From a virus, in the IMG/VR virus record IMGVR_UViG_3300010034_000001, positions 1 through 40,859 of that record: a stretch of DNA of 40,859 bases. One strand, given 5' to 3'. The position numbers and the translations under genes were made by a program. Below the pieces are notes generated by a model. The model saw nothing but the letters and a program-made list of their open reading frames with translations. It searched no databases and was not told the DNA's origin. Positions 4,066-19,552 of the stretch are shown here, one piece after another. How positions within the stretch are numbered: position 1 is the stretch's first letter; each line of letters starts with the position of its first letter.

Positions 4066-4339
4066 GGTTTCCTCCTTTCGCACGTTTTACTATTTCTGTA
4101 GACCGACTACTCAACTTGGTTTTCGTGCGAAAGAGGACTTTCTTTAGCCAAGCAATCGGTCTACAGTAACAGTAGATTAGTGCATAAATGAATGAACCTA
4201 TTAAATTAGCATTAAATATGGTTAAAAATGGGTATTTTATATCAACACTTGTATAAGCCAAGCAGACAAATATTATAGCGTTTATAGTGCCCACAATAAG
4301 CACACTCTCAAAAAACGCATCTATAAAATTTTTACTCAT
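4040..4339 (-). CDS. Small membrane protein (99 aa)
   Basis: Two to three hydrophobic segments and a basic tail. ATGA overlap with the upstream gene. Its 3' end overlaps the bet start. Confidence 0.55.
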   Translation of the reverse strand: MSKNFIDAFFESVLIVGTINAIIFVCLAYTSVDIKYPFLTIFNANLIGSFIYALIYCYCRPIAWLKKVLFRTKTKLSSRSTEIVKRAKGGNHEPDSHKR

Positions 4340-6795: not shown

Positions 6796-7030
6796 GAGCC
6801 AAATAAACGGCCGCTGAGCGGTTTTTAGGCTATGGCATATCAAACCATTACCCTACCCTAAATATGCCCGTCATCGGTTTCATTTTAAACATGCTTTGTA
6901 AGGCATTTTAAAATACCATGGCGGGCTTAATTTTTCCTTAATGTGATTTATCGGCTTCAAGATAAAAATTAACTGATGATTAAATTTGGACGGTTTAAAG
7001 CGATGTTTGAGAATGAGTGAAGTTGCTTGG

Positions 7031-7130
7031 CCTCAAACGTCCTTTTCAAGGCCAAGCAGCCAGGTTTGAACATCCTGTCTAGAACTAAGCAACTAGATTT
7101 TAACATCCTGTTCAAAATCAAGCCGCTCAG
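7031..7130. repeat. Three tandem degenerate 33-34-nt direct repeats
   Basis: The units are 7031-7063, 7064-7096 and 7097-7130, with core AAC(A/G)TCCT(G/T)T...AAGC..C(T/C).AG recurring at an exact 33-nt period (7036, 7069, 7102). R1 and R2 match at about 26 of 34 positions by eye. Confidence 0.8.
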
Positions 7131-7258
7131 ATGATCAATCCGTATACCCTGAGCGACTAGAATATTACCAAACAAAAAATGTACAGTCAAGCTTTTATAC
7201 ATGATTTCGTATAATTTTTTTCTTGCATCGTTCTTTTAATTTTGTTAGATCTTAAATT

Positions 7259-7553
7259 GCTTGTTAAACAAGCCGCCGTAATGTTTTCGGGTAACCTCCG
7301 GGTCGGCATTACACAAGGCGAAGAAGTTAGATTGGGAAAGCTAGGAAAGCTTCAGTGTTGGGACTTGCTTTAGTATGAAGTTGCCAGTTAACACCCTAGC
7401 TTGTAGAACTTGAATTCATGTTACCAAGATTCTGCATAAACTGGCCCTACTCATGAGTGGACTCAGATGCTGACTGACATTAGCATCCCAGACTAAATCT
7501 GGAAATGACGATGGCCTGAAACCGGCGTTAATAGCCAACTAAGCCAAGAAATT
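7259..7553 (+). ncRNA. Candidate structured RNA or long structured 5' leader (family not recognised)
   Basis: At least 8 local hairpins in about 290 non-coding nt: 7259-7273, 7274-7320, 7338-7352, 7355-7394, 7406-7432, 7446-7460, 7466-7487 and 7488-7502. The tract looks more GC-rich than its surroundings, and no ORF longer than 18 codons is present. Confidence 0.4.
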
Positions 7554-7895: not shown

Positions 7896-7916
7896 ACTTT
7901 ACTTGTTGTTGTTTCT

Positions 7917-8047
7917 CCTGTGGTTCTGTGAATAATAGTAAAGCTAATGTGTGCAAGTTGTGGGTAACCTAAAAGGTTATCCATGACTTGTGCACATGAT
8001 CCGAAGGAAGCTTTACGATCCGAAGGAATTATTCACAAATCCACAGG
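7917..8047 (+). ncRNA. Extended 48-bp imperfect hairpin with two identical 11-nt bulges (candidate ncRNA, RNase III-type processing site, or DNA-level origin element)
   Basis: Paired segments are 7917-23/8041-47, 7927-36/8028-37, 7938-45/8009-16 and 7947-69/7975-97, with loop TAAAA. The bulges GATCCGAAGGA at 7998-8008 and 8017-8027 each sit opposite a single A. Five G-T wobble pairs work only on the plus-strand RNA. Confidence 0.55.
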
Positions 8048-8076
8048 TTTGATAGAAAAAATAAGGTAATTATATA

Positions 8077-8385
8077 ATGAAACGATCTATGCTAGATGTT
8101 ATGGATGAATTTTTAGCAAATTGTGCTAATATTTGTGAAAAACAAGAAAAAATAAATGGTTATAGAAGTGGGGATTTTGTTCTTAGTTTTGCAAATGAAA
8201 TAACAACAGAAATTGCTGAGATAATTAAGGTGTCACAATCTTATAATAATGTAATGGCTGCTGTACTTTCTAAATTTATGCAAAAACTATCTTTAGATTT
8301 TGAAGTAGAAAAAAACGCATTAATTGAAGCGATATGTGAACTAAAATCAGATCTTAGTGGAGAATTTGATAAAAAGAAAAAGTAG
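8077..8385 (+). CDS. Hypothetical protein (102 aa)
   Basis: ORF with AAGGT about 10 nt upstream. Confidence 0.55.
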   Translation: MKRSMLDVMDEFLANCANICEKQEKINGYRSGDFVLSFANEITTEIAEIIKVSQSYNNVMAAVLSKFMQKLSLDFEVEKNALIEAICELKSDLSGEFDKKKK

Positions 8386-8470: not shown

Positions 8471-8492
8471 AAAAACTTGTCAGTCAGCGTCT

Positions 8493-8519
8493 GGGTTTGC
8501 TCCCTTCGGGGGTAAGCCC
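8493..8519 (+). promoter_or_regulatory. Leader hairpin with a UUCG tetraloop abutting the rusA start codon
   Basis: GGGTTTGCTCCC-TTCG-GGGGTAAGCCC forms 11 bp with one bulged T and two G-T pairs. The 3' arm ends 1 nt before ATG 8520 and contains the only purine-rich, SD-like run. Confidence 0.55.
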
Positions 8520-8933
8520 ATGGCACTTTTAAAACCGCCTCGCTATCAATTAAACAATCCTGACCTAATCTTCACCATCCCAACGCCTCCTTCTGTTAAC
8601 CAAGCTTACACCAATGTGCCCAAAGTTGGTCGTGTTAAGACCAAACGGTATCGTGATTGGGAAAAAGACGCTTCGAATTATTTGTTAATAAACAAAGATA
8701 TACAAACAATTGTATTAAACCCGCCGTATGGTGTTGTATATTCTATCAATAAGTTAGATAATCGTGTTAGAGATTGCGCTAATTATGAGAAATGTTTGAC
8801 CGATTATTTGGTTCACATAAAAATAATTAGCAAAGACGAACTCATTGACGTTAACACGCAACAATGGATAACCCAAAAGGATTTGGGGGCTATAACTATC
8901 TGTGAATTATTTTCAGAGGTAAAGACTTTATGA
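8520..8933 (+). CDS. rusA: RusA-family Holliday junction resolvase
   Basis: PTPPSVNQAY matches the RusA PPSxNxxY block. RDCANYEKCLTDYL matches the catalytic D..N..K...D..L block. The start at 8520 was chosen because the predicted promoter would start transcription downstream of the track ATG at 8460. Confidence 0.75.
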   Translation: MALLKPPRYQLNNPDLIFTIPTPPSVNQAYTNVPKVGRVKTKRYRDWEKDASNYLLINKDIQTIVLNPPYGVVYSINKLDNRVRDCANYEKCLTDYLVHIKIISKDELIDVNTQQWITQKDLGAITICELFSEVKTL

Positions 8934-19324: not shown

Positions 19325-19552
19325 ATGTGCAATATTTTATTCATTTCAAACCTAATTTTTGCTTTGTTGATAGTTTGTTTATTAATTCGCATTTGCATAT
19401 TAAGTGAAAAACTATCAACACAGAAACGTGACACCGAATATATAAAACACGAGACAAATAAAAGTATTCTTGAAGCTAAAAGAATAGCAGACCTTCATAA
19501 AAATTTGATAAGAATGTTGAAACAAGATGAGGACAACCATGGCATTAAATAG
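19325..19552 (+). CDS. Small membrane protein (75 aa; N-terminal TM plus charged helical tail)
   Basis: ATG at 19325 lies 2 nt after the terL stop. The hydrophobic stretch is ILFISNLIFALLIVCLLIRICIL. Confidence 0.55.
   Translation: MCNILFISNLIFALLIVCLLIRICILSEKLSTQKRDTEYIKHETNKSILEAKRIADLHKNLIRMLKQDEDNHGIK

Follow-up and report, generated by a model that had tools for sequence, protein, structure and literature searches.

A strand-asymmetric hairpin of DnaA-box-like repeats in a phage genome and its plasmid homologues: a candidate single-stranded DNA origin or priming element

Introduction

What is the function of a long hairpin that lies in the gap between two small open reading frames (ORFs) of a phage genome? 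The DNA in question is IMG/VR virus record IMGVR_UViG_3300010034_000001, positions 1 to 40,859, and this whole stretch of 40,859 nt is called the window below. An earlier note had described, at 7917-8047, an extended hairpin with two identical 11-nt bulges. It took the G·T pairs of the stem as a sign of a plus-sense RNA rather than a DNA cruciform, and listed an RNase III site, a sponge RNA and a DNA-level element connected with DnaA boxes as possible roles. We find that the hairpin belongs to a family with members in plasmids and other replicons, that the fold is under selection in one strand, and that the stems are made of DnaA-box-like repeats. Our tentative reading, to which we assign a probability of about 0.48, is that the hairpin is a strand-specific single-stranded DNA (ssDNA) origin or priming module, which would present duplex DnaA boxes to the DnaA protein of the host in the manner of the A site.

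Results

Fold and parts of the hairpin

The region 7900-8060 was refolded on both strands, and the rod with helices of 7, 10, 8 and 23 bp was recovered as described. As RNA, the + strand forms a single rod with a minimum free energy of -68.2 kcal/mol (z = -9.0, equalled by 0 of 200 shuffles), whereas the - strand reaches -53.7 kcal/mol (z = -8.4). The rod also forms with DNA parameters, at -39.0 kcal/mol for the + strand versus -32.7 kcal/mol for the - strand. The two identical 11-mers, GATCCGAAGGA, are located exactly at 7998-8008 and 8017-8027, facing the single unpaired A7946 and A7937, respectively. These are the only two exact copies of the 11-mer in the window, and the repeat is really 12 nt long, GATCCGAAGGAA. 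The five G·T pairs (7952/7992, 7953/7991, 7959/7985, 7960/7984 and 7964/7980) are also where they had been placed. Two points of the earlier description need correction: each bulge is predicted to fold as a 3-bp mini-hairpin, TCC[GAA]GGA, and the 3 x 3 internal loop (TTC/AAT) conceals T·T and C·A oppositions. G·T makes up 5 of the 7 non-Watson-Crick oppositions of the phage copy, for which our own binomial estimate on this one copy is p ~0.05; the strand asymmetry is convincing only once the homologues are added. The covariance model of the family scores the phage element at 97.9 bits on the + strand versus 19.7 bits on the - strand. The phage has one copy of the hairpin, and there is no second hairpin of such size in the window. 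The parts are as follows.

7917-8047, + strand: the whole 131-nt hairpin; + is the stable strand and is read as the functional one, from the folds and the family covariance model
7917-7923, + strand: 5' half of the basal helix, CCTGTGG, pairing with CCACAGG at 8041-8047
7927-7936, + strand: 5' half of helix 2, TGTGAATAAT, with a perfect DnaA box, TTATTCACA, on the - strand at 7927-7935
7938-7945, + strand: 5' half of helix 3, GTAAAGCT, pairing with AGCTTTAC at 8009-8016; the spacer between the side modules
7947-7997, + strand: the upper 23-bp helix and its TAAAA loop (7970-7974), holding all five G·T pairs
7998-8008, + strand: side module 1, GATCCGAAGGA, mini-hairpin TCC[GAA]GGA, opposite A7946
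8017-8027, + strand: side module 2, GATCCGAAGGA, mini-hairpin TCC[GAA]GGA, opposite A7937
8028-8037, + strand: 3' half of helix 2, ATTATTCACA, with a perfect DnaA box at 8029-8037, then a weak box, AAATCCACA, at 8037-8045
8048-8082, + strand: AT-rich stretch, 80-83 % A+T, directly 3' of the hairpin
7904-7915, + strand: T-rich run, TTGTTGTTGTTT, 5' of the hairpin, on the strand reading TGTGGATAA-type boxes

The termini of the hairpin, CCTGTGG...AAATCCACAGG, are kept across the family in the alignment. The upper helix is made of DnaA-box-like repeats, TGTGTGCAA and TGTGGGTAA in one arm and TTATCCATG and TTGTGCACA in the other. The AT-rich stretch at 8048-8082 may serve for unwinding or loading, as a promoter, or in both ways; its A+T content is 80-83 % over 8050-8080, but the genome is AT-rich throughout, and the stretch doubles as the ribosome-binding and start region of ORF102. 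It contains TTGATA-18-TATAAT (8049-8078), which has 11 of 12 matches, is the best sigma-70-like site in 5.7-9.0 kb and begins 2 bases past the hairpin. The ATG of ORF102 is overlapped by the -10 hexamer, and any transcript made from this site would either lack a leader or start within the ORF. The T-rich run resembles the TT[A/G]T(T) motifs that DnaA binds in single-stranded DNA (PMC9198467), a resemblance only, which is not conserved in the family.

Homologues on plasmids and other replicons

Metagenomes were scanned for a pair of CCGAAGG motifs with a DnaA box after them. Most matches were RadC coding sequence (HNHPSG motif, reverse strand); among such coding false positives was a plasmid contig (L066, identical to L058). 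At 7207-7335 (+), this contig has the same architecture as the phage: a 7-bp base, a small internal loop, a 9-bp helix TGTGGGTAA/TTATCCACA with G·T, a lone A facing an 11-nt bulge, GTCCCGAAGGG, a 7-bp helix, a second lone A facing an identical bulge, and a long upper helix. The equivalent of helix 3 is GGTTCAA/TTGAACC, that is, the entire helix has been swapped and the pairing kept. Immediately past the hairpin, AT-rich DNA leads into five or more iterons (GGGGTACCATTTCATC) and then a gene for a RepA_C initiator. ParA and a toxin-antitoxin pair are encoded close by, and the region is a plasmid oriV. A second, weaker copy at 7023-7148 (-) lies about 60 nt from the first, on the opposite strand and back to back with it. 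This copy has its own CCCGAAGGG side hairpin, and its terminus, AAATCCACAGG, is identical to that of the phage.

A BLAST search of plasmids with the phage hairpin matched Variovorax megaplasmids (72.8 % over about 100 nt), and a search iterated from this match reached pMOL28 and related Cupriavidus plasmids, a Paraburkholderia sabiae plasmid, the PromA plasmid pIPO2 and pBBR1. The covariance model also picks up a degenerate Variovorax copy. The pIPO2 copy is antisense to both adjacent genes; it is single, the second BLAST 'place' in this plasmid being the palindrome matching itself. A copy 84 % identical to it is present in 506 PLSDB plasmids, 371 of them from Klebsiella, 45 from E. coli and 31 from Enterobacter, and the enterobacterial copy is also found in 59 of 5,426 complete E. 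coli genomes, at up to 14 places in one genome. At the three Klebsiella and E. coli loci inspected (L086, L087 and L089), the copy is part of a fragment bounded by IS26 that also has genes for a cupin and a thermonuclease and, in one case, for chlorite dismutase. Among the matches listed, no RefSeq feature covers the enterobacterial copy.

In pBBR1, the element is present once (L073, NC_025015, 993-1162 (-), 170 nt; 34 bits and E 1.6e-6, on the rough scale of covariance-model E-values), about 620 nt upstream of rep and with the terminus CGTCCACATATCCACGGGCT. It probably lies within the vector feature 'pBBR1 oriV'. The pMOL28 hairpin (L071, 4001-4128) is about 130 nt upstream of three tandem tyrosine recombinase genes (about 381, 552 and 637 aa), and that of the P. 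sabiae plasmid (L084, 2501-2630) is at the same distance, about 130 nt, from tandem tyrosine recombinase genes, of which at least two are visible. At these two loci the hairpin may be the insertion target of the recombinases or part of the end of the element.

Among viruses, a reduced form, GTGGGCAACC-GAA-GGTTGTCCAC, occurs in a viral contig (L078) 64 nt from a RepA_C gene, and three related viral contigs have its short hairpin as well. In L077, also a viral contig, a long hairpin shares the apical core of the family, GTGGGYAACC-loop-GGTTRTCCA, which is kept in the family and in the viral contigs. The exact double-bulge motif is matched in viral contigs by coding tandem repeats only. BLAST against phages gave no match for the hairpin region, the upstream non-coding region or the Variovorax element.

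Conservation and strand asymmetry

Conservation was tested on an alignment of seven sequences, limited to 32 reliably aligned pairs. The stems common to all members are DnaA-box-like repeats, with TGTGGGYAA paired with TTRTCCAYA. Pairing is seen in 90.9 % of the cells, compared with 82.4 % in shuffles (0 of 500 as high), and double changes occur at 11 pairs, compared with 5.2 in shuffles (again 0 of 500). When the partners are slid out of register, pairing falls to 34-46 %. The homologues thus keep the fold, with compensatory changes, and the bulge modules with it. The earlier note had named homologues without such changes or without the bulges as grounds for refutation, and this check speaks for a functional structure.

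The asymmetry between the strands is equally consistent. The + strand folds 3.6-13 kcal/mol better than the - strand in all seven aligned members, which have 2-8 G·T pairs each; G·T is fixed at columns 51/68 in 6 of 7 members and at columns 19/137 in 5 of 7. The members score 72-135 bits with the covariance model on the + strand, versus 20-29 bits on the - strand where that was scored. The fold is selected in one strand, and both RNA and single-stranded DNA fit this result. The step from G·T pairs to one functional strand was therefore right, whereas the further step to RNA fails, because a single DNA strand tolerates G·T equally.

Rfam has no match in the window at the gathering threshold. 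In the local region nothing meaningful appeared up to E = 10, and six homologous loci were likewise without a match, in agreement with the earlier statement that no RNA family with this module is known. The architecture appears to be unannotated: neither Rfam nor the RefSeq features checked nor the literature searched includes it. Single-strand initiation signals and DnaA-box hairpins in general are already known. What appears to be new is the combination of stems of box repeats, fixed G·T pairs and a pair of GNA side hairpins that project from the 3' arm, each facing a single unpaired A.

Side mini-hairpins

Mini-hairpins with C(GNA)G triloops are extraordinarily stable as DNA and much weaker as RNA, and they bind SSB poorly, according to a 2026 review (PMC13037366). 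The same review places GNA mini-hairpins at the single-strand priming sites of the G4, St-1 and alpha3 origins, in RSF1010 ssiA and in the N4 hairpin promoters; ssiA includes the heptamer CCGAAGG, the same as in the phage bulges (PMC13037366). The window has ten C(GNA)G triloop hairpins with a stem of at least 3 bp, counting both strands, and two of them are the bulges. Across the homologues, the side hairpins have a GAA or GCA loop closed by C-G, and their stems are compensated (TCC/GGA, CCC/GGG, TCTCC/GGAGA, TCCTCC/GGAGGA and AACCGC/GCGGTT). The second side arm of the pIPO2 and Klebsiella copies has other loops, and the pBBR1 member bears a classical GCGAAGC mini-hairpin.

DnaA boxes

The window has just two perfect TTATNCACA sites, one in each half of helix 2. 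When a single mismatch is tolerated, the hairpin holds four boxes, more densely clustered than anywhere else in the genome. For a single arm of this length, two or more such boxes with a perfect one among them have p ~2-5e-4 under a first-order Markov model, the box counts of the two arms not being independent, and almost no arm-length window outside the hairpin holds two.

A scan of 185,579 genomes with the 20-mer of the outer arm gave 8 matches, compared with about 4 expected by chance. Five of the eight are one and the same site in Pyrinomonadaceae and other Acidobacteriota metagenome-assembled genomes (L044, L046, L047, L049 and L050). In the two loci scanned, L046 and L049, Pfam-confirmed dnaA and dnaN genes flank the site. 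All five loci have TAGTAGCAGTAGTAG, a TAG-repeat resembling the DnaA-trio, then GGTGCC and then the box pair TGTGGATCTGTGAATAAT. Judged by these neighbours, the outer-arm 20-mer is the box pair of a real chromosomal origin region. The acidobacterial site looks like a textbook basal unwinding system, and 20 nt of it are identical to the outer arm of the phage hairpin.

Another arrangement of boxes was seen in three contigs of metagenome Ga0123353 (L055, L063 and L069). These have tandem repeats of about 67 nt, in which a unit hairpin, CGGGATAG-CC[GAA]GG-CGTATCCCG, is followed by a perfect or near-perfect DnaA box (TTATCCACA), so that they look like an array of boxes plus mini-hairpins.

A cluster of GATC sites, as for Dam or SeqA, was considered for the hairpin and dropped, since equally dense clusters occur elsewhere in the window. 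GATC is the rarest of the 4-bp palindromes of the same composition, with 50 sites, compared with 141 for AGCT, 119 for CATG and 260 for TGCA; three of the 50 are at 7998, 8017 and 8084. This rarity suggests avoidance of a GATC-specific restriction system.

The phage genome and the neighbourhood of the hairpin

The window represents a whole phage genome, circularly permuted and about 40.8 kb long, that was found in two metagenome assemblies. The genes for head and packaging are podovirus-like, and every deposited phage is only very distantly related. The early region has a lambdoid appearance, with RecT and a YqaJ exonuclease leftward and a double YdaS/Cro-like protein, then ORF84, rightward. 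The rightward order continues with a weak terminator-like hairpin (read by eye), a non-coding stretch of about 750 nt, ORF113, the hairpin, ORF102 and RusA. The hairpin is within a 181-nt gap (7896-8076) between the co-oriented ORF113 and ORF102.

No initiator, helicase, loader, primase, polymerase or integrase was found with PHROGs or Pfam among the 50 ORFs scanned, a set that left out about eight ORFs of at least 90 aa in the structural module (about 23.8-36.2 kb) and most shorter ORFs. Nor was a RepB'-like primase or a transposase detected among these ORFs. ORF84 is matched by nothing in Pfam or PHROGs. The ORFans ORF113 and ORF102 have no homologue among 5.8 billion proteins or in IMG/VR; the structure predicted for ORF113 (pLDDT 76) has no significant fold match in the PDB, and that for ORF102 (pLDDT 57) was unusable.

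The hairpin occupies the cro-to-rusA slot, in which the syntenic relatives, identified through RusA, carry replication genes or large ORFs. In one relative (L052), the slot holds an uncharacterised 271-aa ORF and a DnaC/IstB-like loader. In another (L010), it holds large ORFs of 480 and 814 aa, close in size to the RM-like/VirE pair annotated in MW202485.1. The hairpin is absent from the RusA relatives L010, L011 and L052, and the closest annotated phage, MW202485.1, has no related non-coding region. A tblastn search of 6.8-8.5 kb with the replication proteins of the relatives detected no decayed replication gene. The phage copy is a new family member in an unusual host, a phage without recognisable replication genes.

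Several other structures were noted in the genome. The 758 nt at 6796-7553 have no credible ORF, and their RNA fold has z = -5.0 on the + strand and -1.7 on the - strand; there is no Rfam match, and no BLAST match in phages. The stretch might encode a long structured leader or a non-coding RNA, or might belong to an origin, for example as a ColE1-like pre-primer. A hairpin at 8491-8519, GGGTTTGCTCCC-TTCG-GGGGTAAGCCC, has a cUUCGg-type tetraloop and stands directly before the ATG at 8520; its - strand reads CCCGAAGGG. This ATG is the start of the 137-aa JGI protein P0003, and because P0003 starts there, the first 20 codons of the 157-aa RusA ORF are probably a 5' leader. Two other imperfect inverted repeats are unlike the hairpin family: one at 19359-19426, after the terminase gene, with 33-nt arms of 76 % complementarity, and one at 4088-4174, near the RecT end, with 24-nt arms of 83 %.

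Discussion

A proposed role in single-stranded DNA

The option that the earlier note favoured least, a DNA-level element tied to DnaA boxes, is the closest to the evidence. Since the phage has no recognisable replication genes, we regard the hairpin as most likely a landing pad for the replication-start proteins of the host. We infer the binding of DnaA, the loading of helicase, priming and the route by which the strand is exposed, and picture them as follows. The + strand might be exposed when rightward transcription or an R-loop opens the duplex, when the origin breathes, when a strand is displaced, or in the course of recombination-dependent replication with RecT and the exonuclease. Once exposed, it would snap into the 131-nt hairpin, and the stems would recreate duplex DnaA boxes, namely TTATTCACA and weaker ones of the TTRTCCAY type. 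The two C(GAA)G mini-hairpins would remain folded, probably resistant to SSB, and hold the scaffold open. Host DnaA on the stem would then bring DnaB-DnaC, and subsequently primase, to the adjoining single-stranded AT-rich DNA. Only one strand would be active, because the conserved G·T pairs become C·A mismatches on the complementary strand, and this would fix the polarity of helicase loading. In a phage without a recognisable initiator, helicase, loader or primase, the hairpin would be the origin or an essential module of it.

A bolder version of this proposal can be stated, which we consider unlikely. It would make the phage the first phage case of a widespread, unnamed class of strand-specific ssDNA landing pads, DnaA-box hairpins with GNA mini-hairpins as side arms, shared with pBBR1, PromA plasmids, pMOL28 and many clinical IncF plasmids, that recruit the host DnaA, DnaB and primase. 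The hairpin alone would then serve as the origin, and the phage would replicate without encoding an initiator, helicase, loader or primase. The trigger might be transcription of the structured, untranslated 750 nt upstream, much as in ColE1.

A number of observations weigh against an ssDNA origin or priming role. The enterobacterial copies, in their IS26-bounded fragment, have no evident role in replication. The PromA oriV is reported about 5 kb downstream of repA (PMC4290620), and the pIPO2 copy is off that site, about 30 kb from repA. When boxes with up to two mismatches are counted, their density is no higher than the background, with 8 in the hairpin and 9 elsewhere in the window, and a genome-wide test of the maximum cluster of boxes gives p ~0.09. 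The boxes of the family are mostly TTGTCCAY and not the high-affinity TTATCCACA, and DnaA-trio repeats, (3'-GAT-5')n, are absent from both flanks of the phage hairpin when these are read directly (compare the acidobacterial TAGTAGCAGTAGTAG). The ORFans ORF84, ORF113 and ORF102 might encode an initiator that cannot be recognised. Finally, the phage copy lies between two ORFs of an operon and so is certainly transcribed, the family element points the same way as the gene upstream of it in 6 of 7 contexts, as expected for an RNA element, and conserved wobbles of the G·U type are more familiar from RNA than from DNA.

Alternative explanations

The last three points are those that an RNA element would explain. 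In the rightward early mRNA, between ORF113 and ORF102, it would be processed by RNase III, stabilise an RNA 3' end, or show a protein two identical motifs, either single-stranded or mini-hairpins; we judge such an element somewhat unlikely, though a real rival to the DNA reading. The stability of the + strand as RNA (-68.2 kcal/mol, z = -9.0) is in its favour, as is the cUUCGg-capped hairpin at about 8491-8517, which suggests that RNA structure is used elsewhere in the operon. An uninterrupted 23-bp helix is expected to be a substrate of RNase III, and here this helix, between co-oriented ORFs, provides a double-stranded RNA stem of about two turns or more, as in a T7-type RNase III site. For the RNase III and sponge roles proposed in the earlier note, we found nothing specific in support. 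DNA is favoured over RNA because the stems consist of DnaA-box-like repeats, which an RNA element leaves unexplained, and because the side arms are C(GNA)G mini-hairpins of the DNA type, GNA triloops closed by C-G being much weaker in RNA (PMC13037366). It is further favoured because the copy in plasmid contig L066 fills the DnaA-box slot of an iteron origin, in an untranslated region and with a partner on the opposite strand, and because the pIPO2 copy, antisense to both neighbours, is not in a sense transcript. The signature of an RNA gene is also lacking: no member has an Rfam match, there is no U-tract or promoter of a separate RNA gene, and the flanks vary between members.

Could the boxes act in ordinary duplex DNA instead? 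The converging box arrays might be an oligomerisation region as in oriC beside an AT-rich unwinding element, or a DnaA-dependent operator of the promoter-like site at 8049-8078; if the operator version were true, phage expression would be coupled to the replication state of the host. The perfect boxes are in inverted orientation, and the box orientation matches that of the left and right halves of E. coli oriC. They adjoin the AT-rich stretch, the best sigma-70-like site follows directly after the last box, and the T-rich run TTGTTGTTGTTT is on the appropriate strand (PMC9198467). However, binding to duplex boxes needs no complementarity between the arms, yet the spacer and basal helices covary, and the boxes of the 5' arm are systematically 'spoiled' by a G that preserves G·T pairing. 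The side mini-hairpins have no role in a duplex, DnaA-trios are absent, and the -10 hexamer overlaps the ATG of ORF102. A duplex DnaA site is therefore very unlikely in our view. We give equally little credence to a target of recombination, in the manner of attC or the attP of CTX phage, or to a preferred insertion target or small mobile palindrome. Strand-specific folded sites are the rule for integron attC. The tandem tyrosine recombinase genes next to the hairpin in pMOL28 (three genes) and in the P. sabiae plasmid fit such a role, as do the many unrelated contexts of the family and the three places found by BLAST in Variovorax megaplasmids, which possibly include reverse matches of the palindrome to itself. 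Nevertheless, no integrase or transposase was detected among the scanned phage ORFs, there are no target-site duplications or terminal repeats round the phage copy, the attC core sites (RYYYAAC ... GTTRRRY) are absent from it, and the element is single in the phage, pIPO2 and pBBR1. RIT elements, in which 34-bp terminal repeats flank three recombinases, are defined by those repeats and not by this hairpin (PMC10214605).

Other candidates were rejected. CsrA-type display of GGA, sites for IHF, CtrA, LexA or KorA, a protelomerase site and an attC site have no supporting features; an intrinsic terminator was dropped for lack of a U-tract, and a retron msd for lack of a reverse transcriptase.

Implications

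If the hairpin is indeed an ssDNA origin or priming module, then a new conserved element of this kind, annotated nowhere, would be present in 506 PLSDB plasmids, 59 of 5,426 E. coli genomes, pBBR1 and one phage, and the prediction of origins in plasmids and phages would be improved. The rule that G·T on one strand is C·A on the other may explain the choice of strand by single-strand signals. The phage would have a minimal replication strategy, relying fully on host initiation proteins, which would bear on its host range, and the family would bear on the exchange of replication modules between phages and plasmids. It would also mean that vectors based on pBBR1 contain a sequence that may matter for their broad host range.

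Comparison with known systems

As a long intergenic hairpin in a polycistronic phage transcript, the element is like the RNase III sites of T7, the sib site of lambda and the N-leader sites, and the podovirus-like head genes are a further point in common. T7 RNase III sites are about 50-60 nt long and have a characteristic internal loop. T7-type sites have nothing like DnaA boxes or GNA side hairpins, and some members of the present family are outside mRNAs. The G4, St-1 and alpha3 origins and the N4 promoters share with it the GNA or GNNA mini-hairpins at which a polymerase or primase starts (PMC13037366). However, G4, St-1 and alpha3 have ssDNA genomes and N4 uses a virion RNA polymerase, whereas the present phage is podovirus-like, with a double-stranded genome of 40.9 kb and no such polymerase; its largest ORF has 841 aa.

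The likeness to chromosomal oriC is in the 20-mer of the outer arm, which is the box pair of the Pyrinomonadaceae dnaA-dnaN spacer, and the likeness to the origins of iteron plasmids is in contig L066, where DnaA boxes stand beside an AT-rich stretch and iterons. Classical clusters of boxes act as duplex, with no need for complementary arms, and the phage has no trios, iterons or Rep gene.

The ssiA and ssiB sites of RSF1010 (IncQ) are closer in form. They are hairpins at oriV that act as single strands and are recognised by the RepB' primase, and they have an identical CCGAAGG mini-hairpin (PMC13037366). They form an oppositely oriented pair (PMC8567376), as do the two copies in L066. The differences are that ssiA and ssiB are 40 nt long, have no DnaA boxes and need a primase encoded by the plasmid, whereas no RepB'-like gene is among the phage ORFs scanned; and that CCGAAGG is the tip of the ssi hairpin, whereas in the 131-nt phage hairpin it forms the side arms, twice.

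The A site is a DnaA-box hairpin in ssDNA that nucleates the ABC primosome and suffices for loading by DnaA, DnaB, DnaC and DnaG (Masai 1990/1995 and Carr & Kaguni 2002, as cited in PMC6127211); DnaA is drawn to the box in the stem and loads DnaB, and primase follows. Like it, the phage element is a one-strand DNA hairpin with a duplex DnaA box in its stem, the perfect TTATTCACA in helix 2 with box-like repeats above. The A site uses host proteins only (DnaA, DnaB, DnaC and DnaG) and acts on one strand, and by analogy we propose that the phage hairpin may do likewise. The A site is a simple hairpin with one box, whereas the members of the present family are about 130 nt long and have three to four box-like repeats in each arm, conserved G·T pairs and two side mini-hairpins.

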